From positions 128,001 through 192,000 of the forward strand of contig CAWEPK010000010.1 in assembly GCA_963810935.1 (NCBI GenBank): a DNA stretch of 64,000 nucleotides, in the 5' to 3' direction. Source of the stretch: an uncultured delta proteobacterium. GTDB taxonomy: Bacteria > Desulfobacterota > Syntrophorhabdia > Syntrophorhabdales > WCHB1-27. The translations under genes and the position numbers were made by a program. This document shows, one piece after another, positions 1 to 64,000 of the stretch (the first letter of the stretch is position 1; each line of letters starts with the position of its first letter). The notes beneath the pieces were generated by a model, which saw only the letters and a list, made by a program, of their open reading frames with translations, ran no database searches and was not told the DNA's origin.

Positions 1-229
1 CGTCGCTGATGCGGATATTGAAGGAGCTTCTGGATGGGAGGACTACCGCCGCTTCCACAACTATCGAGCCGACGCCGCCTGCCGCCAGCCTCCTGTACCT
101 GTCTATGATGTTCTGCGTTATGTGGCCGTCCTCGGTCGCAAGCCTGGTGACCGCTGCCGTAGACATGATACGGTTGGGAAAGACGCAGGCCCCGACCTTA
201 ACCGGCGAAAAGAGTTTCGCGTATTTCAT
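1..229 (-). CDS. NADH:flavin oxidoreductase / old yellow enzyme family, N-terminal part (runs off window)
   Basis: Hand translation MKYAKLFSPVKVGACVFPNRIMSTAAVTRLATEDGHITQNIIDRYRRLAAGGVGSIVVEA shows the OYE N-terminus (LFsP..G...NRI; Y..rA.GGvG.I..E). Directly downstream of the Mo subunit. Confidence 0.85.
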   Translation of the reverse strand, partial: MKYAKLFSPVKVGACVFPNRIMSTAAVTRLATEDGHITQNIIDRYRRLAAGGVGSIVVEAAVVLPSRSSFNIRISD

Positions 230-244
230 GGTCGCATCTCCTGT

Positions 245-2554
245 CTACTTTATCTTCTCTTCAAGGAGCCGAAGCATCCTGTCCGGCGTGATGGGAACTT
301 CGTACGCCCACACACCCGTCGCATCGTGTATTGCATTCGATATCGCGCCGTGAAGGCCGCACCCGAACCCGAGGGATCCTTCCTTTGCGCCGTAAGGACC
401 GTCCGGATCGGGGATGCCGAGAAAATGCACGTCTATTTCGGGAGTTTCGTTTGCCGTCGGCACCTTATAGGTCCTGAACGTGCTTGTCAGCTTCCTCCCC
501 GTTTTCCGGTCCCATACGTTCCTCTCGCTCAGGCCCTGCCCCAGCATGAAGTTAATGTGGCCGTACATGTTGCCCTTGACGAGCAGCGGGTTCAGCACCG
601 TGCCGCAGTCATTGACCGCCACTATCTTCTCTATCTTTATCCGGCCGGTGCCCGGATCGATTTCCAGTTCCACGCTGGTGGTGCCGAAGGAGTAGGCCGT
701 TACTTTCTGGCCGTAGGTCTTCTCGTTATAGGGCTCTTTGATGTCTATGCCGAAGTCGGAGTAGTCGATCCTCGCCCGGTAATCGCCGAACCCGAAGATC
801 GGTTTCCCTCTCTTGAAGGCCGTCCGGCACACTTCGCCGATCTTCACCCCTCTTCCTTTTCCAATCCTTCGCTTCACGAAGAATTCCTTGCCTCTCATCT
901 CGACCTCATCGGCGGAGACATCGAGGATATCACCGGCTATCTCGAGGAGGCGCCTTTTGGCGTCCTGGGCAGCCCTCTTTACGGCGTTTGCCGAAACGAC
1001 GGTGGCGGACATGGAATAGTTCCCCGGGTCCTGATAACAGAGCTCGGTATCGCCGTAGCATAGCTTGATGTCTTTCATGTCTATGCCGATCTCCTCGGAG
1101 GCAATCTGGGTGAACATCGTCTGATTGCCCTGGCCGAGGTCACAGTTTCCGGTAAAAACCGTACAGCTTCCGTCGTCGTTGAATTTTATGAAGGAGGTCG
1201 AGCCGCTGCGGAAGCCCATGTAGAACATGGACTGCATATTCCCGGAGCCTATGCCGATCCCGCGCATCGGCCCCATCTTGCCCCTCTTCTCCTTCCAGCC
1301 CGATTTTTCCGCGGCCATGACGATGCTTTCGCTCAAGCCCGTGCTGGTCACAACCGATTTTGATGGAACGACCTCGTTGGGGAGCACCGCGTTCTTCAGC
1401 CTCAATTCGATGGGATCGATGCCTAAGACCTCGCTCATCTGGTCGAAGCAGACATCCATCGACATCGGGCCGACGTGGGCGCGGGTCCGCATCATGGAGC
1501 TGATAGTCTTGTTCGTATAGATCAGATCCGCATGGTACCTGTAATTAGGCGCGCGCCACAATACCTCATCGATAAGGAGAGGCACCCACAGCTCGACAAT
1601 GGCGCTGCTTGCATAAGCCCCGCATTCAAGCACCATGCGGATGTCCCTGCCCGTTATCGTCCCATCCTTCTTGAAGCCCACTTTGATCGTCCAGACCTTT
1701 GAGGCTTTGTCCCTCATGCAGTCTTCGACCTCTTCACGGGTCATCTTGACCTGGACGGGCCTGCCTGCCTTGCGCGAAAGGAGGCATGCTATAAAAGCCC
1801 CGGGAGGCGTATCCGATCTCCCTCCGTGGGCGCCGCCCATCGGCAGCGAGTGGAGGCGCACATCGCTCGGCGATACCTTGAGCGTGTTGCTGAGGCCCTG
1901 ACGGGTCTGGAAAGGGCATTGCGTTTGCAGCCAGAGGTTAAATTTCCCGGAAGGCTCGTAGCTGGCGATGGCAGTGAAAGGCTCCGGCAGGCCATGGCTG
2001 GCTACGTCACATGTAAACGTCTTCTCCCAGACATAGTCGCTGCCCTTCAATGCCTCTTCCACGTTCCCCTCGTCCACCAGGTAACGGGCAGCGAGGTTCC
2101 CCTGCCTGTGCTCATGGACAAGAGGCGCCCCTTCCTTTACCGCGTCTTCCGCCGTCAAAACGTAGGGAAGCGGCTCGTACTCCACCTTGATGAGATCGGC
2201 CGCTTCTTCCGCAGTGTCTTCGTCCACTGCGGCCACGGCGGCAACTTCTTCCCCCATGTATCTGACCTTCTCGTAAGGAAGGAGGATGTGGTCCCTCGTA
2301 TGAGGTATGATACCGAATACGCCGCCCCTCGGCGTATCATTAATTCCTGTCACCACCGCTTTCACACCAGGCAGCTTTTCAGCGGCGCTCGTATCAATAC
2401 TTAAGATCTTAGCATGCGGGTGTGGGCTGCGCACTACCTTTGCGTACAGCATCCCGGACAGCACCATGTCCGTCGCATACTTTGCCCTGCCGAGGGCCTT
2501 ATCTGCCGAGTCGATCCTCGGCAAGTTCTTTCCGATCAGGCTTTCCCTGCTCAT
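245..2554 (-). CDS. xanthine dehydrogenase family molybdopterin-binding subunit (4-hydroxybenzoyl-CoA reductase alpha-like)
   Basis: 769 aa; GRAKYATD, RSPHPHA, KVRYMGEEVAAV, DLGQG, ELEIDPGTG, GPYGAKE motifs. Confidence 0.92.
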   Translation of the reverse strand: MSRESLIGKNLPRIDSADKALGRAKYATDMVLSGMLYAKVVRSPHPHAKILSIDTSAAEKLPGVKAVVTGINDTPRGGVFGIIPHTRDHILLPYEKVRYMGEEVAAVAAVDEDTAEEAADLIKVEYEPLPYVLTAEDAVKEGAPLVHEHRQGNLAARYLVDEGNVEEALKGSDYVWEKTFTCDVASHGLPEPFTAIASYEPSGKFNLWLQTQCPFQTRQGLSNTLKVSPSDVRLHSLPMGGAHGGRSDTPPGAFIACLLSRKAGRPVQVKMTREEVEDCMRDKASKVWTIKVGFKKDGTITGRDIRMVLECGAYASSAIVELWVPLLIDEVLWRAPNYRYHADLIYTNKTISSMMRTRAHVGPMSMDVCFDQMSEVLGIDPIELRLKNAVLPNEVVPSKSVVTSTGLSESIVMAAEKSGWKEKRGKMGPMRGIGIGSGNMQSMFYMGFRSGSTSFIKFNDDGSCTVFTGNCDLGQGNQTMFTQIASEEIGIDMKDIKLCYGDTELCYQDPGNYSMSATVVSANAVKRAAQDAKRRLLEIAGDILDVSADEVEMRGKEFFVKRRIGKGRGVKIGEVCRTAFKRGKPIFGFGDYRARIDYSDFGIDIKEPYNEKTYGQKVTAYSFGTTSVELEIDPGTGRIKIEKIVAVNDCGTVLNPLLVKGNMYGHINFMLGQGLSERNVWDRKTGRKLTSTFRTYKVPTANETPEIDVHFLGIPDPDGPYGAKEGSLGFGCGLHGAISNAIHDATGVWAYEVPITPDRMLRLLEEKIK

Positions 2555-3030
2555 TTGTCACCCTCCATCTCTTTCGCTGCGGCCTGAATGGCCTCGATAA
2601 TCTGGACGTAACCCGTGCAGCGGCAAACATGATTAGAGATCGCTTCCTTAACCTGATCGACGTTGGGGCGGGGATTCCTATCGAGGAGCGCCTTGGCCGA
2701 CATAATGAACCCTGGGCTGCAGTAGCCGCATTGTATGGCTCCGTACTCGACGAAGGCTTTCTGAATCGGATGCAACTGATACCCTTCTTTCGCCAGACCT
2801 TCGATCGTAACAATATCATTGCCGTTCGCTTCAACGGCCAGCATCATGCAGGAGAGCACCGCCTTGCCGTCCATGGATACCGTGCATCCCCCGCAGTCGC
2901 CTTTATTGCACATTTCCTTCGTGCCGGTCAATCCAAGCTGCTCCCTGAGGACCTCGAGGAGCGTCCTACGGCTGTCAACCTGTAATCTATACATATCGCC
3001 GTTCACTTTAAGCTCTATGTCGTGTTTCAT
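2551..3030 (-). CDS. (2Fe-2S)-binding small subunit of Mo enzyme
   Basis: Start MKHDIELKV after AGGAGG; CNKGDCGGC, QCGYC and CRCTGY motifs. Confidence 0.93.
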   Translation of the reverse strand: MKHDIELKVNGDMYRLQVDSRRTLLEVLREQLGLTGTKEMCNKGDCGGCTVSMDGKAVLSCMMLAVEANGNDIVTIEGLAKEGYQLHPIQKAFVEYGAIQCGYCSPGFIMSAKALLDRNPRPNVDQVKEAISNHVCRCTGYVQIIEAIQAAAKEMEGDK

Positions 3031-3043
3031 TTCGCTACCCTCC

Positions 3044-3904
3044 TTAAACCCCTGCGGCTTCTTTGATAGCCCTCTCGACCATTGTCTTGAGCACCTTCGT
3101 CTTGTATTCCGCCGTAAACATGACGTCGGCTCCGGTATGGCCTTCCTTTGCCGCCTCATCAGCCGCCTTTTCGACGAGGGCCGCCGTGACCGGATGGCCT
3201 TTCATAAGTTCCTCCGCGCTCTTCGCTCTCATGGTCGGCAGGGTCACGCCGCCAAGGCCGATGGTGATATCCTTGCACGTTTTTCCATCCATCGTAATGG
3301 CGACTGAAGCGGACACGGTTGCATAGTCGAAGCGTTCTCTCATGGCAAACTTTTTGTAGCCCGTCCTGGTGCCCTGCGCCGACGGCGGTACGCGGAAGCT
3401 AATCAAAAGGTCATCACCCTTCATCTCTTTGTGGAGGTCCTCTACCTGAACGGCTCTCTCGCCTGCTTCCGTCACCAGCACGGCTTCCGCCTTCACCGCA
3501 ATGAGGGCCGGGATCGTTTCGGAGGTCGAGAAGCGCACGGCCACGTTGCCTCCAATCGTCCCCATGTTCCGGATCTGGGGTGTGCCAAGCATGCCGCATA
3601 CGGTGGTAAGTAACGGGCAACGGGCGTTTACGTCAGGCGAATCGGCTATGGTCTGGAGTAAGGCCATACTGCCTATCTCCAGACCTTTACGCTTGTCGAA
3701 GCCGACGGTATCCAAACCAGCGACGCCTTTCAGACCGATGACAAAGGGACGCACTGCAATCCGGTCCTTCATCTGCTGCAGGGCGATGGTGCCGCCCGCG
3801 AAGAGCCTGGCGCTGCCCGTGTGCTGCCTAAGCAGGGACAGAACTTCGCTGACGCTTTTCGGCGCCAGGTAGTCGAACTTCGGTAGTCTCCTGTAATAAG
3901 TCAT
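3044..3904 (-). CDS. FAD-binding medium subunit of Mo enzyme (no 4Fe-4S insert)
   Basis: 286 aa; FAGGT, QIRNMGTIGGN; CoxM-like C-terminus. Confidence 0.9.
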   Translation of the reverse strand: MTYYRRLPKFDYLAPKSVSEVLSLLRQHTGSARLFAGGTIALQQMKDRIAVRPFVIGLKGVAGLDTVGFDKRKGLEIGSMALLQTIADSPDVNARCPLLTTVCGMLGTPQIRNMGTIGGNVAVRFSTSETIPALIAVKAEAVLVTEAGERAVQVEDLHKEMKGDDLLISFRVPPSAQGTRTGYKKFAMRERFDYATVSASVAITMDGKTCKDITIGLGGVTLPTMRAKSAEELMKGHPVTAALVEKAADEAAKEGHTGADVMFTAEYKTKVLKTMVERAIKEAAGV

Positions 3905-3936
3905 CGCTCACTCCTTTCGGTATCTTTCTGTTGCTC

Positions 3937-5589
3937 TTACCCCTGATCCTTCCAGCCCATCAGCTTTCTTATGTCCTCCCGAAGCACCTTCTTGTCCGGC
4001 TTGCCTATGTTAGTGAGAGGAATGGTATCGACAAATTCGATCCTCTCCGGCAACTGGAGCATGGAAGCGCCGCGGGCCTTAAGAAATGCGATGGTCTCGT
4101 CGAAGGTGGCGCTTGCGCCGGCCTTGCGCTGGACATACGCGCATATACGTTCCCCCAGCACCTTATCCGGCATACCTATAACCGCGGCCGAGTCGATGTC
4201 CGGGTGCCCGCTAAGGAGGTTCTCGATCTCCACTGCGCTTATCTTCTCGCCGCCCCGGTTTATGATGTCTTTGATCCTTCCGGTTATATACACATAGCCC
4301 CGTTCGTCCTTCCTGGCGAGATCGCCCGTGCGAAAGAATCCGTCTTTCGTGAACACATTCTCGTTGTCTTCCGACCGGAAGTAGCCGGTAAAGATTCCCG
4401 GCCCTTTCGACACCAGCTCGCCTTCCCGGCCCTGGGGCAGCTCATAGCCGTTGCCGTCGACGATTTTCAACGTGTCGTAGGGACAGATGGGCTTGCCGAC
4501 GCTGTAGCAGATCGTCTCGATGTCGTCCTCGGTCCTCGTGGCCGCGCACGTACCTTCCACCGAGCCGAGCCCGTTGTGATATTTACATCCGATTTTCGTC
4601 CAGACCGCCTTCACCAGATCAGGGGTGCTCGGCGCGCCGCCGACCGATATTTTTTTCAGAGAGCTGAGGTCATAACGGCTAAGGTCATCGAGGTTCACGA
4701 TTCGCGTAATAATAGCCGGCACGGAAGGAACGGCGGTTACCTGCTCTCTCGCGATGGTCTCACAGATGTCTTCCGGCTGGGTCGAATCGAGCAGCACAAG
4801 TTTCGCGCGGTTGAAAAATGCGCCGCCGATACCCCAGTGCATCGCCATGCCGTGGCCTACCGGCGTAATGACCAGGAGGGTGTCGTTCGACGTAATTTCC
4901 CACGCTCTCGCGTGGTATTCGATGTTGCACAAATAGTCATTGTGAGTCCTGGGGCTCGCCTTCGGCATTCCTGTGGTGCCGCCTGTGGGCATTATCTGGC
5001 ATACATCCATGGGATCGGGTCTTCTGTCCCTGATTGCCCGGATGGCCGCCTCATTCAGCTCGGTCTCTTCGATCAATTCTTCCATGCTTTCCGACTTGCC
5101 GGCCCATTCGCCCCTAACCGTTACAACATGCTTCAATTGAGGGTTGTGGGCCAGGACACTGTCCACGATGGGCTCGTAGTCAATCTTTCCGTACCGCGTT
5201 GGAAGTATCCATCCCTTTGCCGCGGTCAATCCGGCAAAATGGTTGATCTCTATCTGATTGTGACGCGGTATGAGCAGGACGGCGACGGCGCCGATTTTCT
5301 GAAGAGCGAAAAAGGAGAAGATATACTCATGCCAATTAGGCAGTTGTATCATGACCCGATCGCCCTTCTCGATGCCGCGCCCAATTAAACCGGCTGCCAG
5401 CCGGTCCACCTTGTCTCTGAGCTCCGCGTACGTGTAGCGGGCAATATCGTCCACGAGGCCCACCTTGCCGGGGTAGAGGTCGGTCGCCTTGTCGAACAAG
5501 TCGCCCCACGTAATGCCGAGCCACCACCTGAGCCTGTTGTACCTTTCCGCATCCCCAGGATCGTAGGGAGTAAACCCTTCCAGTTTCAT
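3937..5589 (-). CDS. AMP-binding aryl-acid ligase (EntE/DhbE-like)
   Basis: 550 aa; TGGTTGMPK, RTHNDY, FFRTGD, GRIKDIINRGGEKI. Confidence 0.9.
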   Translation of the reverse strand: MKLEGFTPYDPGDAERYNRLRWWLGITWGDLFDKATDLYPGKVGLVDDIARYTYAELRDKVDRLAAGLIGRGIEKGDRVMIQLPNWHEYIFSFFALQKIGAVAVLLIPRHNQIEINHFAGLTAAKGWILPTRYGKIDYEPIVDSVLAHNPQLKHVVTVRGEWAGKSESMEELIEETELNEAAIRAIRDRRPDPMDVCQIMPTGGTTGMPKASPRTHNDYLCNIEYHARAWEITSNDTLLVITPVGHGMAMHWGIGGAFFNRAKLVLLDSTQPEDICETIAREQVTAVPSVPAIITRIVNLDDLSRYDLSSLKKISVGGAPSTPDLVKAVWTKIGCKYHNGLGSVEGTCAATRTEDDIETICYSVGKPICPYDTLKIVDGNGYELPQGREGELVSKGPGIFTGYFRSEDNENVFTKDGFFRTGDLARKDERGYVYITGRIKDIINRGGEKISAVEIENLLSGHPDIDSAAVIGMPDKVLGERICAYVQRKAGASATFDETIAFLKARGASMLQLPERIEFVDTIPLTNIGKPDKKVLREDIRKLMGWKDQG

Positions 5590-5634
5590 ATCTCGACCTC
5601 GTTATAATGTCATAATGTAATATCGGTATGTTGT

Positions 5635-5664
5635 ATTGTAAAAATATTGTTAGGCAGATGTCAA
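5635..5664 (-). promoter_or_regulatory. sigma70-type promoter of ligase/Mo-enzyme operon
   Basis: TTGACA-N18-TACAAT on the minus strand in an AT-rich intergenic region. Confidence 0.55.
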
Positions 5665-5796
5665 GATATTTCTTGCTTGGTTATGGCGGGTAATAGCGTG
5701 CTGTAGAAGGGAATAACGGCTGCATCGGGTCTGCCCCGTTGCCTGAAATGTATCCGGGCGGCAGATCGGGTTATCCTGGAACGCGAACACAATTAT

Positions 5797-6594
5797 CTAT
5801 CTTGCTGAAGCGTCCCTCAGGCCTAGTTCGTTTGAAATGAGCTTTGCCGTTTCCTCGAGTTTTCCGACTACCTGTCCCGCGCCTTCTTCCGGGACGCGGA
5901 ATTCCTGCAACGAGGCGCCTAAAGCCGCAACGACATTCCCTGCCGCTCCAAAGAGGGGAACGCCGATCTGCATTACACCGTCAAAGAACTCGCCTCGCTC
6001 TAAGGAGTAGCCCCGTTGTCTCGTTTCTTTCAGCTCTGCCTCGACCTCCCTCGATCGCGTCCTTGTTCTTTCCGTATGCTTTCTTATCGGGTATTGCTGG
6101 AGCAGTCTCTTCTTGTCCGCAGCATCCAGGAAGGCGAGCAGGGTAATACCCAGAAACGTTTCCGTAGGCGGCATCTTAACGCCCAGATACGAAGGAATTT
6201 TGAGGATGCTGTCTCCTTCCCTCTTGTCGATGTAGGAAAACTGGTCGTCGATGATAACGCCCACGAGTATTGTGGCCTTCAAGGCCCGGGCAACTGCGTC
6301 GAGGTAAGGCGAGGCGGACTTTCGAACCGACGTGGAGCTGTGCACGACCCCTCCGAGGTCCAGGAACCTCAGGCCTAGCCTGTACAGACGCTCTTCGCGG
6401 TCATACCTGATGTAGCCGTTCTTCTCCATGGTCCGCAGAATCCGGAAGACCGTGGACTTATCGAGGGAGGTCCTCTTAGTCAGCTCATCGAGCGTAAAGG
6501 CGTTCTCGTGCCGCGAATAGTTGTCCAGTATCTTTATGGCCTTTTCCAGGACCTTTACCACGTATTTTTCATGTTGGACGCCGGTCTTAATCAT
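5797..6594 (-). CDS. IclR family transcriptional regulator
   Basis: VLEKAIKIL, LDKSTVFRILRT HTH, YRLG; C-terminal RGYS..GVP effector domain. Confidence 0.92.
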   Translation of the reverse strand: MIKTGVQHEKYVVKVLEKAIKILDNYSRHENAFTLDELTKRTSLDKSTVFRILRTMEKNGYIRYDREERLYRLGLRFLDLGGVVHSSTSVRKSASPYLDAVARALKATILVGVIIDDQFSYIDKREGDSILKIPSYLGVKMPPTETFLGITLLAFLDAADKKRLLQQYPIRKHTERTRTRSREVEAELKETRQRGYSLERGEFFDGVMQIGVPLFGAAGNVVAALGASLQEFRVPEEGAGQVVGKLEETAKLISNELGLRDASAR

Positions 6595-53485: not shown

Positions 53486-53514
53486 TTGACATCAAAAATT
53501 CCGTTTGCTAAGAT
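53486..53514 (+). promoter_or_regulatory. sigma70 promoter
   Basis: TTGACA-N17-TAAGAT with TG extension. Confidence 0.65.
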
Positions 53515-53561
53515 ACGTTTTGCTCTTTATTTCACATTCATCCCAAAGGAGAGGGAAATCT

Positions 53562-54719
53562 ATGGATTTCAAATGGTCCGATGAACTGGAATCAATGCGC
53601 AAAATGGCTTACGATTTTGCGGTCAAAAATGTCAAGCCTACCATGGAAGAAGATGAGAAGGAGCACAAATACCGCCCCGAGCTGCTGAAGAAAATGGGTT
53701 CACAGGGAATGTTCGCCTGCCTGGCGCCCGAGAAGTTCGGAGGGCTCGGACTGGAGCAGGGCCACCTGGCTGCCAGCCTTATGGCTACTGAATTTGCCAG
53801 GGTCAGCCCGTCCTGGGGTCTTCCCTTCAACCTTCAGATGAACGGTCCCCAGAACGTATTGCTCAAGTTCGCGAATGAGGAGCAGAAAGAGCAGTTCCTG
53901 CCGGGCCTCATCGCCGGGACGAGCGGCGGCTGCTTCGCCATCACCGAGCCCAACTCCGGGTCGGACGTGGCAAGCATGAGGACGACCGCGACGGAAGTGG
54001 ACGGCGGCTGGGTCCTGAACGGCTCGAAGACGTGGATATCGGGTGTTCCTTACTGCGGCTGCGGCGTTGTTTACGCCATGACGGACAAGGCCGCCAAGCA
54101 CAAGGGCATGTCCGCCTTCTTCATCGACTTCAATACTCCCGGCATCACGCAGCGGGCGATCACCACGAAGCTTGGCCTCCACTGCGCCCCCACCGGGGAG
54201 ATATTCTTCGAAGAGGCCAAAATCCCCAAGACGGCCCTAGTCGGCAAGCTCGGCCAGGGATTCCAGATATGCATGACCATGCTCAATTTCACGCGGCTCA
54301 GCTCGGCTGCGCGCGCCCTGGGCGTCGCCCAGAGCTGCATCGAGGAAGCATGCAAGTACGCTAACGAAAGGGAGCAGTTCGGCCAGCCCATCGGCCAGTT
54401 CCAGATGGTCCAGGAGCAGATCGCCAGGATGTACGTCGAGCATGAGGCTGCGAAGCTCCTCGTCTATAAGGCGGCATGGCAGAAGGACCTTGGCATGAAC
54501 AACACGCTCGAGACGTCGATGGCCAAGTACTACGCGGCCGAATCGGCCAACTTCTGCGCATCGGAAGCGGTCAAGATTTTCGGCTCCTACGGGTTCTCCT
54601 CCGAGTACCCTGTCGAAAGATTTCTGAGGGACGCCAAGTCCTACCAGATAGTCGAAGGAACGTCAAACGTACAGAAGATGATCATCGCCCAATTCGCTTT
54701 GGGATACAGAAAAAGCTAA
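53562..54719 (+). CDS. acyl-CoA dehydrogenase, glutaryl-CoA dehydrogenase (non-decarboxylating)-like
   Basis: ITEPNSGSD, NGSKTWI, QFG.PI, IVEGTSN; followed by a biotin carrier. Confidence 0.85.
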   Translation: MDFKWSDELESMRKMAYDFAVKNVKPTMEEDEKEHKYRPELLKKMGSQGMFACLAPEKFGGLGLEQGHLAASLMATEFARVSPSWGLPFNLQMNGPQNVLLKFANEEQKEQFLPGLIAGTSGGCFAITEPNSGSDVASMRTTATEVDGGWVLNGSKTWISGVPYCGCGVVYAMTDKAAKHKGMSAFFIDFNTPGITQRAITTKLGLHCAPTGEIFFEEAKIPKTALVGKLGQGFQICMTMLNFTRLSSAARALGVAQSCIEEACKYANEREQFGQPIGQFQMVQEQIARMYVEHEAAKLLVYKAAWQKDLGMNNTLETSMAKYYAAESANFCASEAVKIFGSYGFSSEYPVERFLRDAKSYQIVEGTSNVQKMIIAQFALGYRKS

Positions 54720-55426: not shown

Positions 55427-56008
55427 TCAGGGGCCCTCTATGACTGCGAGGGGGTCAAGGAGCGTGAAGCATCCGGGGTCGACCAGGTCCGGCCAGGTAA
55501 GCCCTTCGTACGAGACACCCTTTTGCGGGCAGGCGAGGGAGACGTGCAGGTGCGGGCGAACCTTTGCTTTTGTGTTTGGTCCGGCAATAAGACCGATGAC
55601 CTCCCCCTCTTTCACGACGGCCCCATGCCGAAGGGCTTTTCCCTGGGCTATATGCCCGTAAACGGTGACGAACGGGTCGTCCGCATACGGGCGGCAGTGC
55701 TCGAGGACGGCCGTCTTCCCCAGGAAATCATCGATGAGCGCAACCACTCTTCCGCCGTACATGGCGGGAACGACCATCCCTGCTTCAACCTGGAAAAGCC
55801 CTTCCCCCTTGCCTGCGAACAGGCAGAAATCGGTCCCTTCGTGGGGGGTGGTGCGTGCTCCGGGGCCGTCCCACCACTTATCCGTTTCTTCGAATAACAT
55901 GCCCGGAAGAAAAACCCATGCCCGAAAGCCACGTTTGTCGAGGCCGTTTTCCCTCACTATGAATTCAGTAAATCTGCTGCGCGGTATGTCGCGCACCCGG
56001 CTATCCAT
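55427..56008 (-). CDS. M23 peptidase-like protein
   Basis: HEGTD, YGH, PHLH. Confidence 0.75.
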   Translation of the reverse strand: MDSRVRDIPRSRFTEFIVRENGLDKRGFRAWVFLPGMLFEETDKWWDGPGARTTPHEGTDFCLFAGKGEGLFQVEAGMVVPAMYGGRVVALIDDFLGKTAVLEHCRPYADDPFVTVYGHIAQGKALRHGAVVKEGEVIGLIAGPNTKAKVRPHLHVSLACPQKGVSYEGLTWPDLVDPGCFTLLDPLAVIEGP

Positions 56009-56567
56009 GCAGCCGTTTAACGATCCAGGCCATCCTCCGGCCGAGGACGGCTGCCAACTCCATGCCCTCCTCGTCTGCCGCGACCTCGCCTTTCTCCTTC
56101 CCCAGGCCGAGGACCCGTCCGGCTATGACCAAATCATTACTGAAGAAAAGATGGTTCATCGTCTCGATGGTATGCATGGCGCCCGAGCGCCGGAAACAGG
56201 CGAGCGAAGCACCTACCTTGTTCTTGTACATCTTGCCGTTCGCCAGGCCGACAAAGCCGACGCGGTCGATAAATGCCTTCATCTCGGCGGTCACGTCCTG
56301 AAAATAGGAGGGAGAGCCGAGGACCAGCCCTTGTGCCCCCATGATCTTTTCGATGTACTCGTTGGCCGCATCGTTTTTTACCGCGCACCGCCCGTCCAGG
56401 TTCTCGAAGCACTTGTAACAGGCGATGCATCCGCGTATCGGTTTCTCGGAAAGCTGCACCAGCTCCGTCTCGATCCCCTCCTGCCCGACCGCTTCAAGGA
56501 GTCGGCCGATCAGCATGGTCGTGTTTCCGTCCTTCCTCGGGCTCCCGTTGAACGCTACTATTTTCAT
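56001..56567 (-). CDS. flavodoxin-like iron-sulfur flavoprotein
   Basis: GSPRKDGNT, CIACYKC......C, GSPSY, KAFIDR. Confidence 0.9.
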   Translation of the reverse strand: MKIVAFNGSPRKDGNTTMLIGRLLEAVGQEGIETELVQLSEKPIRGCIACYKCFENLDGRCAVKNDAANEYIEKIMGAQGLVLGSPSYFQDVTAEMKAFIDRVGFVGLANGKMYKNKVGASLACFRRSGAMHTIETMNHLFFSNDLVIAGRVLGLGKEKGEVAADEEGMELAAVLGRRMAWIVKRLHG

Positions 56568-56668
56568 AAACACTCCTCCATTATCGCTGTCATTAGGATC
56601 TGTCTTCATTCTATCACCCCGGCCCCCGCCTGTAAAAGAGACCGGTTTACGAAGGTCCGCTTTTTTCC

Positions 56669-56697
56669 TTGACGGGGCCTCCGCAATCCGATATAAA
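56669..56697 (+). promoter_or_regulatory. sigma70 promoter for second IclR/Mo-enzyme module
   Basis: TTGACG-N17-TATAAA. Confidence 0.5.
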
Positions 56698-56704
56698 GTT
56701 CTGT

Positions 56705-57536
56705 ATGGCGGACCTCGGTTCTAAGTCGTCGAAAAAACCAAAGAACGGCAAGGACGTAAAAGACCTTAAAGAGAAACCTATGTCCCCGGCCGTAGAGCAG
56801 GCATCGCGCGTGCTCTTCTGTCTGGCCGATGCCAGGTCTACCTACATGAGCCTTACCGACATCCACACGAAGGTAGGCATACACAAGAGCAAGGCCTTCT
56901 CCATTCTGGAGACATTGCGGGAATCCGGGCTCGTGCGTAAGAACAGCGACGGGAAGGGCTATATGCTCGGCCCAAGCCTGGTCTTCCTGTCACGCAGGGT
57001 CATGGACCTCCTCAGCCCTGCCCGGCTCGCGGAGCCGGTTCTGCGGGACCTCTCACGGAAGACGCGTTCCACGGCCGTGCTTTGGCTTATCGACGGGTCG
57101 AACGTATTCGTAGCAGCCAAGCACGAGGCAGAGGATGATTTCAGCATCGCGATGCGCATCGGGCAGCGTCTTCCTGCTACGTACGGCGCACACGGCAAGA
57201 TGATGGCCGCTCTAATGCCGGAGGCCGAACTGGCCGGGCTCCTGAAAGAAAAACACCTTTATTTCCAGAGCAGGACCGGCAAGGTGCGGGTGGAGCAGAC
57301 TCCGCAGAGAGCTTGAAGATTGCCGCCGGGACGGCGTCGCGATAGACCCGGGTGAAGTAGCCCCCGGCATGCATGTGATCGCGTCCCCGGTGTTCGGTCC
57401 GAGGGGCGCACCCGTCGGCTTTATAGAGATATTCGTCCTGTTCTCACCGGGACGTGTCCACAAGCTGGCCCCGTCGGTGGCGGAGGCGGGCAAGGCGCTC
57501 TCGCGGGAGCTGGGCGCACATATGGAAGGCCGCTGA
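56705..57536 (+). CDS. IclR family regulator (one-base insertion near 57299)
   Basis: IHKSKAFSILETL HTH, GAHGK; tail ELEDCRRDGVAID...IASPVFG...LSRELG in second frame. Confidence 0.85.
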
Positions 57537-57579
57537 GGCAGGCGTCCTTCATTCATTAACGGATAAGGAGAGGCGAGGC

Positions 57580-58119
57580 ATGGCAACGAAACCGCAAAAA
57601 CGAAAAGGCGACAGCGGTACTGCAAAGACGGGCCGTATAAACCTCACGGTGAATGGACGAACGCACGTCCTCACGGTAGGGGATGGGCCGGGCCTGGTGA
57701 GCCCCGGCCACACCCTCGCCCATACGCTCCGGGAGGACCTGGGCCTGACCGGGACCAAGGTCTCCTGCGATAACGGCGCCTGCGGCTGTTGCACGGTCCT
57801 CATTGAAGGGAAAGCGGTGCTTTCCTGCATGATGCTGACCGTTGAGTGCGACGGCAAGCACGTCAGAACAATCGAGGGGCTGGGTGACGCTAAGGAAGGC
57901 AAACTGGACGTGCTCCAGGAAGCGTTTATAGAGCACCAGGCTTTTCAGTGCGGGTTCTGCACTCCGGGCATTATCATGAACGCCAGGGCCCTCCTCGACG
58001 AGAACCCGGCGCCGACCGAAGTGGAAGTGCAAGAGGCGCTTTCGGGTAACTTCTGCCGCTGCATAAGCCATTATCACGTTGTCAGGGCTGTCATGGCGGC
58101 ATCGGAAAAGGCAAGGTGA
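57580..58119 (+). CDS. (2Fe-2S)-binding small subunit of Mo enzyme
   Basis: CDNGACGCC, QCGFC, CRC. Confidence 0.93.
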   Translation: MATKPQKRKGDSGTAKTGRINLTVNGRTHVLTVGDGPGLVSPGHTLAHTLREDLGLTGTKVSCDNGACGCCTVLIEGKAVLSCMMLTVECDGKHVRTIEGLGDAKEGKLDVLQEAFIEHQAFQCGFCTPGIIMNARALLDENPAPTEVEVQEALSGNFCRCISHYHVVRAVMAASEKAR

Positions 58120-58123
58120 GGCG

Positions 58124-60412
58124 ATGGGAGACAAATACCGCTTTATAGGCAAAGCGACACGCCGCAAGGACGCGACCGAGATCGTAACGGGGGGCGGCCG
58201 GTATCTGAACGATATCAAAATGCCGGGGGTGATCTACGGGAAAGTGCTGAGAAGCCCCCACGCCCACGCCATCGTGAAGAACGTAGATAAAAGAAAGGCG
58301 GAGGCCCTGCCCGGCGTCGAGGCAGTGCTGTGGTGGAAGGACGTACCCGACTGGAAGGGCGGCACTCCCCGCCACACCCGCATACTCGACAGCAGGGTGC
58401 GCTACGTCGGAGACGCCGTCGCCCTCGTTGCCGCGGTGACGGAAGAGAAAGCGACGGAGGCCCTGCACCTTATAGACGTGGAGTATGAGGTACTGCCGGC
58501 TGTCCTCGACCCCGAAGAGGCGCTCAAACCGGGAGCGCCCCAGTTGTACGAGGAATACCCCGGCAACGTGGTCACGCCGGGCATGCCCTTTTTCGGTCCC
58601 AAGGCCCTCAAAGAGGTGGTGATGGGAGACGTGGATAAAGGGTTCGCCGAGGCCGACGTCATCACGGAAGGGACTTTCGCCTACGAGAACCTCCCCAACC
58701 CGCTGCCGCCGGAGTCGCCCGGCGCGATCGCCCTGTGGGAAGAGCCCGACAAAGTGACCCTCTGGGTCACCAACCAGGCGTCCTATATGGATAAGATCAC
58801 CCTCCACCACGTGATGGACAGGAAGGTCGAGGTAAGGACCATAGCAGGGCCGTGCGGGGCCAGCTTCGGATCGAAGTTCATGTCCTGGCAGGTACAGACT
58901 TACGCCATTCTTTTGAGCAGGGCGACGCGCAAGCCGGTGAAAGTGATGTTCACCAAGGAAGAGCACCTCGCGGCCTTCGTTCTGCGTCCCGCGTCGCGGA
59001 TGACGGCCAGGGTCGGCATGAAGAAGGACGGCACCGTCACTGCGATACAGGGCAACTGGATCATCGACACGGGCTACTATTCGCAGACCACCCAGTCGCA
59101 GGTGGCGGTGGGGTGCGGCGAGACCCAGATCATGCTGCAATGCCCCAACTGGGACCTTAAGAACGTCATAGTCTGCACGAACCGCAACGCCTCCGGCATT
59201 GTCCGGGGCTTCGGCGGGCAGGAATTGAAGTGCATCCTGATACCCGTTTTGAGCCTGGCTATGCAAAAGCTCGACATAGACCCGTTCGAGTTCCTGCAAA
59301 AAAGCTACGTCAAGCCCGGGGGCGGCTACTACTGGCGCGACGGCATCTGGTACACGTACCGTGGGGTCGATTACACCGCCATGATGAATAAAGGCGCGCA
59401 GGCCTTCGGTTGGAAAGAGAAGTGGAAGGGTTGGCTGAAGCCGACGGCCGTAAACGGCGCCAAAAGAAGGGGCATAGGCGTGGGCGTCCACGGCAACGCA
59501 GACATCGGAGAGGACGCCTCTGAGGCATACGTGCGGCTCGGCCCCTATGGGACTGCGCTGGTCGTCTCCTGCGTCACCGAGCACGGGACGGGCCAGAGGA
59601 GCAACCTCGCAAAGATGGTCGCCGAAGTGCTCCAGATACCCCTGGAGAAGGTATCGATGTCGCCGGCAGACTCCCTTTTCACCCCATATGAGTTCGGACC
59701 TGCCGGGTCGCGCGGGACTTACGCCATCGGCAGCGCCGTCATAAACGCGGCCGAGGACGCGAGGAAAAAACTCCTGGAGATATTTGCCCCCATCTTCAAT
59801 GAAGACCCGGAGGGTCTGGACACGGTTGACGGGATGGTCTTCAGGAAGAAAAACCCGGACAAGAAGATACCGTGGCGCGCGATGAGCGTGGACCGCACGA
59901 TAACCGGCTTCGGGCGCTTCGAGCCGGATTACACGCTGACAACGTGCATCATGAGCTTCGTCGAAGTCGAGGTAGATACGGAGACAGGCAAAGTGACCCT
60001 CGTTAAGGTAGTCAACGCGACGGACATCGGGCAAATTATCGACCCGCTCGGCCTGGAGAACCAACTGAACGGCTGCCTTGGCACTGCGGGCATCGACAGC
60101 GCGATCTTCGAGGAGACGGTTATCGACCAGCGGACCGGGCACACGCTCAACGCGAACATGATCGACTACAAGTGGCGCACCTTCAGGGAGCTTCCGCCGA
60201 TCGAGAACGTAGTTCTGGAAACGCCGTTCCCAAGCCACCGCTTCCACGCTATCGGCATAGGCGAGAACGCGACTTCCCCCGGCCCGTCGGCCGTTCTCAT
60301 GGCCGTCTCGAACGCGTGCGGGACGTGGCTGCACGATTACCCAGTCACGCCCGATAAGGTACTGAGGGCGCTCGGAAAAATAGAAGACGCCCGTAAAGGA
60401 GGTGCACAATGA
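58124..60412 (+). CDS. xanthine dehydrogenase family molybdopterin-binding subunit
   Basis: RSPHAHA, SFGSK, RGFGG, EHGTG, EVEVDTETG, GIGE. Confidence 0.92.
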   Translation: MGDKYRFIGKATRRKDATEIVTGGGRYLNDIKMPGVIYGKVLRSPHAHAIVKNVDKRKAEALPGVEAVLWWKDVPDWKGGTPRHTRILDSRVRYVGDAVALVAAVTEEKATEALHLIDVEYEVLPAVLDPEEALKPGAPQLYEEYPGNVVTPGMPFFGPKALKEVVMGDVDKGFAEADVITEGTFAYENLPNPLPPESPGAIALWEEPDKVTLWVTNQASYMDKITLHHVMDRKVEVRTIAGPCGASFGSKFMSWQVQTYAILLSRATRKPVKVMFTKEEHLAAFVLRPASRMTARVGMKKDGTVTAIQGNWIIDTGYYSQTTQSQVAVGCGETQIMLQCPNWDLKNVIVCTNRNASGIVRGFGGQELKCILIPVLSLAMQKLDIDPFEFLQKSYVKPGGGYYWRDGIWYTYRGVDYTAMMNKGAQAFGWKEKWKGWLKPTAVNGAKRRGIGVGVHGNADIGEDASEAYVRLGPYGTALVVSCVTEHGTGQRSNLAKMVAEVLQIPLEKVSMSPADSLFTPYEFGPAGSRGTYAIGSAVINAAEDARKKLLEIFAPIFNEDPEGLDTVDGMVFRKKNPDKKIPWRAMSVDRTITGFGRFEPDYTLTTCIMSFVEVEVDTETGKVTLVKVVNATDIGQIIDPLGLENQLNGCLGTAGIDSAIFEETVIDQRTGHTLNANMIDYKWRTFRELPPIENVVLETPFPSHRFHAIGIGENATSPGPSAVLMAVSNACGTWLHDYPVTPDKVLRALGKIEDARKGGAQ

Positions 60413-62760
60413 AATCTTTCGTGCACCGCAATGCAAGGTCGATCGACGAGGCTGCCCGGCTCCTGAAAAAGAATAAAGGTAAGGCGAAGGTTAACGCGGG
60501 CGGCACTGACCTTCTGAATGCGCTCAAGGACGAGTTCCTGCCCGATTACCCGGAGACCATCATCAACATTAAGGGCATCGAGGGGCTGAGTTATATAAGA
60601 CAGGACAAGGGGGGCTTGAAGATAGGCGCGGCAACGCCTTTATCGGAGATAGCCGCCTCGCCCGCAGTTAAGGAAGGCTATGGGCTGCTCGCGGAATGCG
60701 CCAGGTCTGTGGCCACGCCCGCCATAAGGAACATGGCGACCATCGGCGGCAACATGGCCCAGGACGTGCGGTGCTGGTACTATAGGTATCCGTTCCACCT
60801 GGGAGGCCCCATCGTCTGTCTGAGAAAGGGCGGCAAGACCTGCGACGCCCTCAACGGGGACCACAGATATCACTCGGTATTCGGGGCTGCCCCTATGGAG
60901 AAGACCCCCTGCTCGGCAGGCTGCCCTTCGGGGATCGACATCCCGGCATATATGGAAAACGTAAGGGAAGGCAAGTTGGCCGAAGCCGCCCGCATCCTGA
61001 TCGATTATAACCCGATGCCCGCTGTCACGGGCCGGGTATGCCCTACCTTCTGCGAGCCGGAATGCAACCGGGCCGCAATCGACGCGCCCGTCGCCGTAAG
61101 GTGCGTAGAGCGCTCCGTAGGCGATTACATGCTTGAGAACGCCGATCTTATATTCAGGCCGCCTGCGTCAGAGTCCGGGAAGAGCGTTGCGGTTGTCGGC
61201 TCCGGGCCGGCGGGCCTTGCGGCAGCTTTTTACCTGCGGAGATTGGGCCATAAGGTCACGGTCTTCGAAAGACTATCGGAGGCGGGGGGTATGCTTATCT
61301 ATGCGATACCGCCCTACCGTCTGCCGAAGGACATAGTCGGAAAACAGATCGAAGCACTCAAAAAGACGGGCATCGAGATCCGTACAGGCGTTGCGGCAGG
61401 CAAGAAAGAGTCCGTCCCAGGCATGATTCGCCGGTTCGACGCAGTCTTCATCGCGGCCGGCGCGTGGAAGGAGCGGCCGATGGGCATCAAGGGGGAGGCG
61501 CTCACCTCTTCCGGCCTTGCGTTCCTGGGCCGCATGAATGTGGGCCGGAGGGAGATACCGGGCAAGAACGTCGCCGTTATCGGCGGCGGCAACGTCGCCC
61601 TCGACGTGGCGCGGACGCTGCTCAGGCTAGGCGCCAAGCCGTTAGTCGTCTACCGGCGGACCAGGGCACAGATGCCCGCGCTCGCCGACGAGGTAGAAAA
61701 GGCACTCGAAGAAGGCGTCCGTTTCCGCTTCCTGACGCTGCCGAAACAAGCGTCGAAGGAGGGGCGTGCTACAAAGCTCACGTGCACGCGCGCAAAATTA
61801 GGGGCGCCTGACGCCTCCGGGCGGCGCAGTCCCGTGGAGATACCGGGCTCGGAGTTCACCCTGAAGTTCGATGCGGTAATAAAAGCAATCGGGGAAACGC
61901 CCGACGTTGCTTTCCTTCCTGCCGCCATGCAGATAAAGGCGCGCCAAAAAGGTGAGCACGCGCGCCTGCTCGGCGGAAAAGTCTTCGCAGGCGGCGACTT
62001 CCTGACAGGGCCTTCGACCGTTATCGAGGCATTGGCCGCAGGGAAAGAGGCGGCCGGCCTCATAGACGCGTCGCTTAAAGCGAAAAACGCATCAACGGGG
62101 ACGAGGTCCGCAGTCCGTCAAACAAAGCCGTATTTCGAGGCGGCGCCTCGCCTGTCCGTCCGGGAGGCGGCCGCAGCGGACCGGATCAAAAACATTGACG
62201 CAGAGGAGACGCAGGGTGTCGCCGCGAAGGCAATCCGGCAAGAGGCGGGCAGGTGCCTCGATTGCGGCTGCCTGGCGGTAAACCCTTCCGATATAGGGAT
62301 TGCGCTCATTGCGCTCAACGCAAAAGTCGTGACTACGAAAGGGACGATAGGCGCGCAGGATTTTTTTGCGGCAACCGCCACGTCCTCGACCGTCCTTGAG
62401 TCCGACGAGCTGATAACCGAAATCGTGGTCCCCAGACCGCCCGCAGGCGCTCGCCAGGACTACAGTAAATTTACACTCAGGGCGCCTGTCGATTTTGCCA
62501 TGGTGAGTGTCGGCACCCTCATTGACGCACCCAACGGCTCGTGCAAAGAGGCCCGCATCGTCCTCGGCGCGCTCGGCCCGACACCCGTGCGGGCAACCGC
62601 AGCGGAAAAACTGCTCAAGGGGCGGAAGATCGACGACGAGATCGCGGGGCGGGCTGCGGAGGCCGCCCTTGCAGGCGCCTATCCTCTTGGGATGAACGGA
62701 TACAAGGTAGAGATAGCGAAATCGCTTATAAGGGAGGCGATACTGAAAAACGGAAAGTAG
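60409..62760 (+). CDS. Mo-enzyme FAD subunit with inserted GltD-like 4Fe-4S/FAD/NAD(P) domain
   Basis: AGGTDL, IRNMATIGGN, RCWYYR; insert PC..GCP, GRVCP..CE..C, GSGPAG, GGGNVA.D, RCLDC; resumes CLAVNPSD. Confidence 0.88.
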   Translation: MKSFVHRNARSIDEAARLLKKNKGKAKVNAGGTDLLNALKDEFLPDYPETIINIKGIEGLSYIRQDKGGLKIGAATPLSEIAASPAVKEGYGLLAECARSVATPAIRNMATIGGNMAQDVRCWYYRYPFHLGGPIVCLRKGGKTCDALNGDHRYHSVFGAAPMEKTPCSAGCPSGIDIPAYMENVREGKLAEAARILIDYNPMPAVTGRVCPTFCEPECNRAAIDAPVAVRCVERSVGDYMLENADLIFRPPASESGKSVAVVGSGPAGLAAAFYLRRLGHKVTVFERLSEAGGMLIYAIPPYRLPKDIVGKQIEALKKTGIEIRTGVAAGKKESVPGMIRRFDAVFIAAGAWKERPMGIKGEALTSSGLAFLGRMNVGRREIPGKNVAVIGGGNVALDVARTLLRLGAKPLVVYRRTRAQMPALADEVEKALEEGVRFRFLTLPKQASKEGRATKLTCTRAKLGAPDASGRRSPVEIPGSEFTLKFDAVIKAIGETPDVAFLPAAMQIKARQKGEHARLLGGKVFAGGDFLTGPSTVIEALAAGKEAAGLIDASLKAKNASTGTRSAVRQTKPYFEAAPRLSVREAAAADRIKNIDAEETQGVAAKAIRQEAGRCLDCGCLAVNPSDIGIALIALNAKVVTTKGTIGAQDFFAATATSSTVLESDELITEIVVPRPPAGARQDYSKFTLRAPVDFAMVSVGTLIDAPNGSCKEARIVLGALGPTPVRATAAEKLLKGRKIDDEIAGRAAEAALAGAYPLGMNGYKVEIAKSLIREAILKNGK

Positions 62761-62790: not shown

Positions 62791-64000
62791 ATGCCTATAG
62801 AAGGGTTCAATCCATACAGGCCGGAGGATGCGGCGAGGTACAACAAATACCGGTGGTGGCTGGGCATCACCTGGGGGGACATGTTCGATAAGGCGACGGA
62901 CCTCTACCCGGACAAGGAGGGCCTGGTCGACGATACAAACCGCTTCACTTATCGGCAGCTTCGCCGGATGGTGGACAGCCTTGCGGTGGGGTTCATGGAC
63001 CTCGGGATCGGGCAGCGCGATTTCGTGCTCGTCCAGATCCCCAACTGGCACGAATACATCATCACTTTTTACGCATTACAGAAGATAGGCGCCATACCGG
63101 TCCTTTTGATCGCCAGGCACGGCCTCGCGGAAATCCTTCATATCGCTTCGCTGACCAACCCTGTCGCGTGGATAGGACCGGACCGCTACAGGAACACCGA
63201 GTTCCTGCCCATGCTGAAGCAGGTCACGGAAAAGAACCCGCGCCTGCGCCACTTGATATCGGTACGGGGACAGAGCGCGGAATTCAGACCCCTGGAGTCG
63301 TTGATGAGGCCGCGCGAGCTTTCTACCACAGACCTGGAGGCGATAGCCGCCCGGCGTCCCGACCCGATGGAGGTATCGATGATACTCCTGACGGGAGGCA
63401 CTACCGGGCTGCCCAAGGCCGTGCCCAGGACCCACAACGACTATATCGCCAGCGTGGAGTACCATTCGAGGCCGTGGGAGATCACGAGCAGCGACGTGCT
63501 CCTTACAGTGGCCCCCGTGAGCCACGCCCAGGGCATGCACAACGGAGTGGGCGGGGCTTTTTTCAACTTCGCGAAGTACGTGGTCACCGATTCCACGGAG
63601 GCGGAGGACATTTGCAGGGTTATCGAGCGTGAAAAGGTCACGGCCTTCCCTACCGTGCCCGCTCTCGTCCAAAGGATCGTCACCCTCCCGAACCTCGGGG
63701 ATTTCGACCTAAGCTCGCTAAAGAAGATTTACGCGGGCGGCGCGCCGAGCACACCCGAGCTGGTAAGGAGCGTTTACGAAAAAATAGGCTGTAAATTCGT
63801 GAACACCCTGGGGGCTGCCGAAGGCCTCGGCGCGATGACGCGCCTCGACGCCGACGTCGAGACCGTTTGCACCACCGTCGGCCAAAAGGACTGTCCCTAT
63901 TCTTATTACAAGGTGATCGACCAGTACGGGCAGGCGTTGCCGGCCAACCGCGAAGGGGAGCTGGTCGCAAAAGGCCCGAACATTTTCTCCGGCTATTTTA
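62791..64000 (+). CDS. AMP-binding aryl-acid ligase (EntE/DhbE-like), runs off window
   Basis: Hand translation MPIEGFNPYRPEDAARYNKYRWWLGITWGDMFDKATDLYP; TGGTTGLPK, RTHNDY; paralog of 3937-5589. Confidence 0.9.
   Translation, partial: MPIEGFNPYRPEDAARYNKYRWWLGITWGDMFDKATDLYPDKEGLVDDTNRFTYRQLRRMVDSLAVGFMDLGIGQRDFVLVQIPNWHEYIITFYALQKIGAIPVLLIARHGLAEILHIASLTNPVAWIGPDRYRNTEFLPMLKQVTEKNPRLRHLISVRGQSAEFRPLESLMRPRELSTTDLEAIAARRPDPMEVSMILLTGGTTGLPKAVPRTHNDYIASVEYHSRPWEITSSDVLLTVAPVSHAQGMHNGVGGAFFNFAKYVVTDSTEAEDICRVIEREKVTAFPTVPALVQRIVTLPNLGDFDLSSLKKIYAGGAPSTPELVRSVYEKIGCKFVNTLGAAEGLGAMTRLDADVETVCTTVGQKDCPYSYYKVIDQYGQALPANREGELVAKGPNIFSGYF

Follow-up and report, generated by a model that had tools for sequence, protein, structure and literature searches.

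The stretch of DNA analysed here (the window: 64,000 nucleotides (nt) of contig CAWEPK010000010.1 from an uncultured delta proteobacterium) ends in an operon for a molybdenum (Mo) enzyme belonging to the xanthine oxidase family (Table 1). Its open reading frame (ORF) 60409–62760 encodes a flavin adenine dinucleotide (FAD) subunit of the HcrB/PaoB type which carries a circularly permuted GltD/NfnB insert, an assignment that is practically certain. The Pfam domains of the 783-residue product follow in the order FAD_binding_5 (from residue 8), Fer4_20 (165–244), Pyr_redox_2 (259–545) and CO_deh_flav_C (691–779). The module is inserted between the third and the fourth cysteine of the host cluster. 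The first three are C122 of RCWYYR (encoded at 60772) and C137 and C145 of CLRKGGKTC (60817 and 60841), and the fourth is C621 of CLAVNPSD (62269), while C616 and C619 of EAGRCLDC (62254 and 62263) close the module. All six cysteines had been quoted in an initial annotation of this DNA and each was located; the insert of about 460 residues that it placed at roughly 60890–62268 is exact to within a codon (60889–62268). In a close module-less relative (locus L016) the sequence runs uninterrupted through the insertion point.

The layout proposed in that annotation, a flavo-iron-sulfur unit inside the [4Fe-4S] loop of a Mo-enzyme FAD subunit, is borne out by the Pfam domains, by the motifs and by structure prediction for the fused subunit. 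The AlphaFold2 model was built on 147 sequences (predicted local distance difference test score, pLDDT, 91.3; predicted template modelling score, pTM, 0.87). Its residues 161–620 superimpose on NfnA (9bov_A; Z 46.7, root mean square deviation (rmsd) 2.7, 451 residues aligned) and residues 161/162–620 on StnC (8oh5_C; Z 45.2). The two flanks of the split host together form one domain matching HcrB (1rm6_B; Z 34.5, rmsd 2.2, 309/323 residues) and PaoB (5g5g_B; Z 36.0, rmsd 2.0, 306/316 residues). Plain NfnB and GltD structures align only up to residue ~558–566, because the first two cysteines are N-terminal in these proteins. The hallmarks of the StnC/NfnA type are all present: PCxxxCP at the start of the module, EAxRCxxC at its end and a fold match across the whole unit. 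The C-terminal position of EAGRCLDC, pointed out earlier, thus stands, but it is not peculiar to this protein, being the usual permuted form seen in StnC, in NfnA and in dozens of hosts. With the same ends, the permuted unit is found in many other hosts within the 150 best representatives, and this genome encodes it in further proteins, including an Old-Yellow-Enzyme-like fusion. Permutation joins the ends of the unit and would thereby account for the fact that it fits into loops. The Old-Yellow-Enzyme-like fusion is a protein of 863 residues (window 1–229, minus strand; whole ORF G000:C10:125641–128229 = L162:7642–10230) with an N-terminal part recognised by eye and a permuted GltD module of the YRR type; its gene immediately follows a second Mo-enzyme operon.

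Three sets of [4Fe-4S] ligands can be recognised, made up of 11 cysteines and Glu234. The four-Cys loop within the FAD domain, typical of HcrB and PaoB, is kept in 146–147 of 147 aligned proteins, in which ten of the 11 cysteines are invariant and C145, E234 and R304 are each found in 146. Among 102 non-identical ORFs from the loci, a set that overlaps with the 147 proteins and is not independent of them, the 12 ligands and Arg304 are invariant save for C145 (101). From this pattern the host cluster would be bound by C122, C137, C145 and C621, the distal cluster of the module is predicted to be bound by C168, C219, C616 and C619, and its proximal cluster by C172, C211, C215 and E234. Both sets of flavin-binding motifs are conserved as well, and the two flavins and several Fe-S clusters expected by the initial annotation are consistent with these motifs. 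The second FAD site, Arg304 and a YRR motif (415–417) belong to the module. According to an established rule for Rossmann folds, YRR in the second Rossmann motif indicates a preference for NADP, so the module is very probably of the NADP type.

Table 1. Features of the Mo-enzyme operon and its surroundings in the window.
Feature	Position	Strand	Remarks	Evidence
IclR-family regulator	56669..57536	+	upstream of operon; frame broken in window	Pfam HTH_IclR + IclR_C
2×[2Fe-2S] small subunit, UxdF/HcrC-like, 179 aa	57580..58119	+		Pfam Fer2 + Fer2_2; 56% to UxdF-length ORF of L142
Mo-cofactor large subunit, xanthine oxidase family, UxdO clade, 762 aa	58124..60412	+		Pfam MoCoBD_1/2
FAD subunit, whole fused ORF, 783 aa	60409..62760	+		Pfam
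Host FAD subunit, N-terminal part	60409..60888	+	residues 1–160; AGGTD and TIGGN flavin motifs, Cys122/137/145	
Inserted circularly permuted GltD/NfnB module	60889..62268	+	residues 161–620	fold match to 9bov_A, 8oh5_C
Host FAD subunit, C-terminal part	62269..62760	+	residues 621–783; fourth cluster ligand Cys621, PSD motif, CO_deh_flav_C	
Aryl-acid adenylating (CoA-ligase-like) gene, 547 aa	62791..64000	+	continues beyond window end	NCBIfam, PDB matches

The start of the fused ORF overlaps the stop codon of the Mo subunit, and the ligase gene, which begins 30 nt past the stop of the fused gene, is followed downstream by a second acyl-CoA ligase gene. The Mo subunit retains the GxGE motif, which we take to be its catalytic Glu motif. 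The frameshift in the IclR gene is caused by one surplus base near 57298 (57298–57299). As this base is absent from the contigs of all four sequencing runs compared, it is most likely an assembly error; at the near-identical locus L156 the IclR frame is intact (288 residues). A promoter scan of 56500–57700 gave a single site, on the minus strand and at chance level. Upstream of the IclR gene lie an acyl-CoA dehydrogenase (53505–54719, plus strand) and a flavodoxin-like FMN (flavin mononucleotide) reductase (56001–56609, minus strand), neither of which was seen as a conserved neighbour.

The architecture of the fused subunit is already in print, and the window gene is a further UxdC-type subunit: the layout of UxdC, from the Enterocloster urolithin 10-dehydroxylase UxdFOC, was described in 2025 (PMC12658268). 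The sections of PMC12658268 consulted describe neither how the module is permuted and placed within the cluster loop nor which electron donor Uxd uses. The ORFs of locus L142 (288, 163 and 787 residues, then 171, 758 and 810) have the lengths given in Supplementary Table 8 of that paper, and its 758-residue protein equals the printed UxdO when compared by eye. Its UxdC-length ORF (810 residues) is 41% identical to the window subunit end to end (333/816 columns), with the same insertion point and junctions and with all 12 cluster ligands and Arg304 shared. Between the Mo subunit and UxdO the identity is 46% (350/757). In a Mo-subunit tree of 97 rows the two proteins fall in one clade of 57 rows (FastTree support 100), where the end branch of UxdO is marked as long; this clade is apart from UcdO and from nine other Mo genes of the genome, HcrA-like paralogues among them. 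Expression of uxdFOC in C. sporogenes led to dehydroxylation of uroM6 and uroM7, and electrons were proposed by the authors to pass from the distal FAD through 4Fe-4S to the proximal FAD (PMC12658268).

A similar path can be proposed for the window enzyme. Electrons of NADPH would enter at the FAD of the module and pass through the proximal [4Fe-4S] cluster (three Cys and Glu234) and the distal one to the host [4Fe-4S] cluster, from where they would reach Mo via the host FAD and the two [2Fe-2S] clusters. With two of its cysteines the segment C616-x2-C619-G-C621 would bind the distal cluster and with the third the host cluster, placing these clusters side by side. The electron donor of 4-hydroxybenzoyl-CoA reductase is ferredoxin; the module, with its distal cluster beside the host cluster, would replace the ferredoxin that feeds this cluster there. 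In keeping with the need for a separate nucleotide site, NAD+ is not used by PaoABC (PMC3958847), the FAD subunit of which has the same cluster loop. In StnC (PMC10482914) and in NfnA (PMC12018979) the corresponding FAD sends NADPH electrons down a single chain and, as reported there, does not bifurcate. The wiring of a Mo centre to NAD(P)H, as the initial annotation had it, is thus rated likely, and the wire is in all likelihood linear and non-bifurcating. As a whole, the gene is read as a UxdC-type subunit forming one unbranched NADPH-to-Mo wire in an enzyme which probably dehydroxylates a CoA-activated hydroxyaromatic acid, with a probability of about 45%.

The direction and the substrate are the least certain parts of this reading. 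The reductive direction is moderately favoured by analogy with UxdFOC, which is reductive, and by the usual poise of NADPH. If the enzyme is reductive, a hydroxyaryl-CoA would be its probable substrate, because of the conserved ligase gene and the benzoyl-CoA pathway of the host. In the Mo subclade of the window (8 rows) an IclR gene upstream and a ligase orthologue (67–98%) directly downstream are present at 6 of the 8 loci; the orthologue also occurs at L002, L060 and L158, which lie outside the subclade or the tree. Of the close paralogues of the window ligase in the genome, 4 of 6 adjoin operons of the xanthine oxidase family. The benzoyl-CoA pathway is represented in the genome by Oah and by a benzoate-CoA ligase split over two frames, both above their family cut-offs; in the search of the genome for a dienoyl-CoA hydratase the scores stayed below the cut-off. 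Orthology with HcrABC, the 4-hydroxybenzoyl-CoA reductase, was rejected, since all three window subunits score below the cut-offs (TIGR03194, 363.5 against 994.55; TIGR03195, 112 against 404.55; TIGR03193, 158.3 against 257.8) and the Mo tree places the window protein elsewhere. No Mo gene of the genome reaches the HcrA cut-off of 994.55, but six others score 624–686 and thus far above the window gene, so 4-hydroxybenzoyl-CoA is probably handled elsewhere. The best guess is a hydroxyaryl-CoA dehydroxylase feeding benzoyl-CoA. Dehydroxylation of gentisyl-CoA was still to be characterised according to a review of 2013 (PMC3727088).

The best NCBIfam match of the window ligase is DHB_AMP_lig, at 388 bits and below the cut-off of 723.55, and its best PDB matches are DhbE and a salicylate-AMP ligase. 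Salicylate or 2,3-dihydroxybenzoate, suggested by these structures, was dropped as the ligase substrate, since the Asn that belongs to the substrate pocket of DhbE is replaced (HAQGM against HNYPL). A pairing of ligase and Mo trimer recurs four times in the genome; one instance is the second operon in the window (248–6594, minus strand), where an IclR-like regulator, a ligase 59% identical to that at 62791, a short FAD subunit, a 2Fe-2S subunit and a Mo subunit follow one another.

Several observations weigh against the proposed chemistry. The fused subunit also partners Mo subunits only 26–31% identical to that of the window; 29 of the 97 tree rows fall in other Mo clades, 3 of these 29 being without a fused partner. 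Since partners are so distant, the module predicts neither substrate nor direction. Among species active in urolithin 10-dehydroxylation UxdO is more than 93% identical, far above the 46% found here, and an E. bolteae homologue ~43% identical to UxdO is thought inactive on urolithin C10 (PMC12658268), so that 46% identity leaves the chemistry unfixed. Such a ligase is missing at two of the eight closest loci (L001, L016), and the missing pocket Asn means that a 2-hydroxy acid is not indicated. Finally, the K165E variant of NfnA, which has Glu as here, transfers electrons onward to NAD/ferredoxin at 0.05 instead of 17.2 U/mg while it keeps about one third of the NADPH:viologen activity (PMC12018979); a Glu-ligated proximal cluster may by analogy disfavour flow from NADPH into the chain, and this tilts somewhat towards the oxidative direction.

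Run oxidatively, the same wire would serve to hydroxylate a (hetero)aromatic acyl-CoA or to oxidise an aldehyde, with electrons passing to NADP+. Within the xanthine oxidase family most members are oxidative (10.1101/2025.01.17.632430), the Glu-ligated cluster may favour flow to NADP+ (cf. K165E, PMC12018979), the pairing with several unrelated Mo clades is compatible with this direction, and at the NQASY position the Mo subunit of the window keeps a Gln, against Gly in UxdO. However, the sole characterised member found of this Mo clade and layout, Uxd, is reductive (PMC12658268), and the benzoyl-CoA pathway of the host would be fed by dehydroxylation. The oxidative direction is therefore considered unlikely, though by no means negligible. 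It is rather improbable that the wire is reductive but acts on a free polyphenol, another aromatic or an amino-aromatic CoA ester, the ligase serving in another step. Uxd itself acts on free urolithins (PMC12658268) and the ligase is missing from many fused operons, but here it follows 30 nt after the stop and stands directly downstream in most of the closest loci.

The initial annotation had also suggested that flavin-based bifurcation drives a low-potential aromatic reduction. The aromatic reduction remains plausible, since a polyphenol is dehydroxylated by UxdFOC, which among characterised homologues is the nearest; bifurcation is not supported, given a module of the StnC/NfnA type and no partner in the operon. 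In this scheme the module FAD would split the electron pair of NADPH, sending the low-potential electron via the clusters to Mo and the high-potential one to an NfnA/NfnS-type partner in trans. The NfnB hallmarks Glu234 and Arg304 are indeed kept (146/147 and 102/102), the residue corresponding to the Glu is a Lys in StnC and NfnA (PMC10482914, PMC12018979), and four PF10418 proteins are encoded elsewhere in the genome. Against this, Arg is also found in the non-bifurcating StnC (its distance to FAD N5 is what separates NfnB from StnC; PMC10482914) and Glu in many other permuted modules. NADH alone suffices for dehydroxylation by purified Ucdh (10.1101/2025.01.17.632430), and uxdFOC alone gave activity in a foreign host (PMC12658268). 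The window operon has no NfnA-type partner. A tblastn search over all 161 loci found an NfnA/NfnS-type gene at one of the 137 fusion-bearing loci (74 of which cover at least 10 kb, and some of which repeat the same gene), namely at L008, ~6 kb away on the opposite strand and resembling the C7/C3 type more than NfnA; at both control loci of the NfnB type, which lack the fusion (L075, L086), NfnA is adjacent. Clustering of 3571 ORFs from 81 loci (79 from GTDB genomes, two from the own genome) gave the three core genes as the only common sense-strand neighbours and no conserved redox partner; PF10418 and PF00175 were not found in a Pfam scan of 130 of the 252 near-neighbour ORFs (E<=1e-15). The best NfnA-type domain of the genome lies in a 770-residue frame (G000:C10:36835–39039) that also holds an NfnB-type part; this frame is a possible source of NADPH for the Mo enzyme. 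Bifurcation is accordingly very doubtful, and equally so the full scenario in which the Glu/Arg-keeping module would be the bifurcating flavin of a hydroxybenzoyl-CoA dehydroxylase of the sort known so far by its activity alone (gentisyl-CoA reductase, for example), with an NfnA-type partner in trans and with lineages retuned by NADP/NAD cassette swaps. If it were true, NADPH would inject electrons of ferredoxin potential straight into a Mo centre.

The fusion is real and widespread. Junction 1 is bridged by contigs X2 (60566–61912, 0 differences) and X1 (60675–61147), and junction 2 by X1 (61620–62465, 0 differences) and X4 (62104–62659); the bridging contigs come from four runs of one study, possibly of the source sample, and no listed piece covers the whole gene. 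The best 120 of 6424 matches cover 94–100% of the query at 57–76% identity. An intact fused ORF is present in 54 of the 81 loci, that of the window included, and a short form in 6; the remaining loci are partial or frameshifted or have the module in a different host. By record titles the fusion is spread over Thermodesulfobacteriota, Chloroflexota, Actinomycetota, Acidobacteriota, Spirochaetota, Bacillota, Synergistota and Bathyarchaeia; it occurs in 17 of 21 searched genomes of the same family (in some as several copies), in 23 of 41 relatives, own genome included, and in 19 of the 37 genomes from the genus to which G001 belongs. An assembly chimera or a non-functional fusion, to which at least one single-base assembly error nearby (in the IclR gene) and the frameshifts in the fused gene at some loci might point, is rejected, given the bridged junctions called for by the initial annotation, the full-length homologues, the intact fusion at 53 other loci in several phyla, the near-invariant ligands and the functional homologue Uxd. 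Some related proteins depart from the common form: P0146 (1730 residues) contains a whole fused subunit at residues 906–1723, L004:4870–7302 is one ORF matching both the 2Fe-2S and the Mo subunit, and in P0130 and P0148 (~630 residues) EAxRC lies near residue 460, ~150 module residues being apparently missing.

The second Rossmann motif is YRR (NADP-type) in the window and CLE (NAD-type) in UxdC. Of the 102 ORFs, 31 are of the RR class, 68 of the LE class and 3 could not be assigned. A tree of the modules of 19 rows separates RR cleanly from LE (support 100), whereas in the tree of the hosts of the same rows the classes are mixed and grouping of LE is rejected (approximately unbiased test, p-AU 0.0005; LG+G4 quick tree). 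The rows were hand-picked, with L002 dropping out of the set, and the motif's own columns were kept; the labels were taken from the motif, but earlier trees were already known. At L144 two tandem copies have hosts equally near to that of the window (68/63% and 68/62%) and modules 58% and 40% identical to its module. In three fused rows the module is nested among StnC-like ones. Five of the six short forms fall within the fused clade of the host tree; three short forms retain a spacer of ~25–35 residues at the insertion site and L016 none. These patterns point to repeated exchange and loss of the module, the root being uncertain. Tandem arrays of 2–3 fused operons per locus, with YRR and CLE modules and Mo subclades mixed, are seen at L145, L147, L144 and L148, one of them with the gene order C-F-O. 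A module-less paralogue with the four-Cys loop lies on the same contig (L081:7491–8477, G000:C10:227491–228477), next to a Mo gene split in two frames.

Thus, no new kind of enzyme is encoded here, but a real, widespread one already described in outline; what is new is the apparent swapping of predicted NADP- and NAD-type modules between close hosts and their repeated loss. The window gene belongs to the UxdC kind, is predicted to be of the NADP type and most likely acts as a plain electron wire in an anaerobic degrader of aromatics. UxdFOC, a polyphenol dehydroxylase of the gut, is thereby linked to a large family among anaerobes that degrade aromatics, and the fused family offers candidates for dehydroxylations of which just the activity is known, for example that of gentisyl-CoA to benzoyl-CoA (PMC3727088). 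The module behaves as an exchangeable cassette which would set the use of NADP or NAD and leave the catalytic subunit unchanged. Pairs found in nature in which the module is present, absent or swapped (L001/L016; the L144 copies) could serve as controls for why NfnB bifurcates and StnC does not.

Among known systems, UxdFOC is the closest. It shares with the window operon the gene order F-O-C, similar sizes (171/758/810 against 179/762/783 residues in the window; 56/46/41% identity), the long FAD subunit with extra 4Fe-4S and FAD/NAD(P) domains and the clade of the Mo subunit; it differs in its CLE module (predicted NAD, against the predicted NADP-type YRR module). The window operon has an IclR and CoA-ligase context, and the closest of its relatives that bear a name are anaerobes of the Syntrophorhabdaceae type, from samples other than gut. 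UcdCFO (Ucdh, urolithin 9-dehydroxylase) is likewise a dehydroxylase of the xanthine oxidase family driven by NAD(P)H, but its FAD subunit is short (288 residues, with neither cluster loop nor module) and its Mo subunit is 29% identical and in a separate clade. HcrABC (1RM6) and PaoABC (5G5G) have the host fold with the four-Cys cluster loop, and by sequence the PDB entry that matches the window Mo subunit best is HcrA; their FAD subunits, however, have no inserted module. NfnB/NfnL of NfnAB (4YLF, 5JCA) and GltD share the FAD/NADPH fold, the Glu-ligated proximal cluster and the conserved Arg, but they are not permuted, and bifurcating NfnB requires NfnA, absent from the window operon. StnC of StnABC (8OH5) and NfnA of NfnABC (9BOV, 9N5U) share the permuted GltD module with the C-terminal RCxxCGC (Z 44–47 over 161–620), which in hosts of such size and type lies between the H-x3-C motif and the CGC...C tail. 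They differ in the host, which is a NuoG-like domain that feeds BfuBC, a separate bifurcating core, and in that a Lys binds the FAD-proximal cluster, where the window subunit has Glu234 (146 of 147 proteins).

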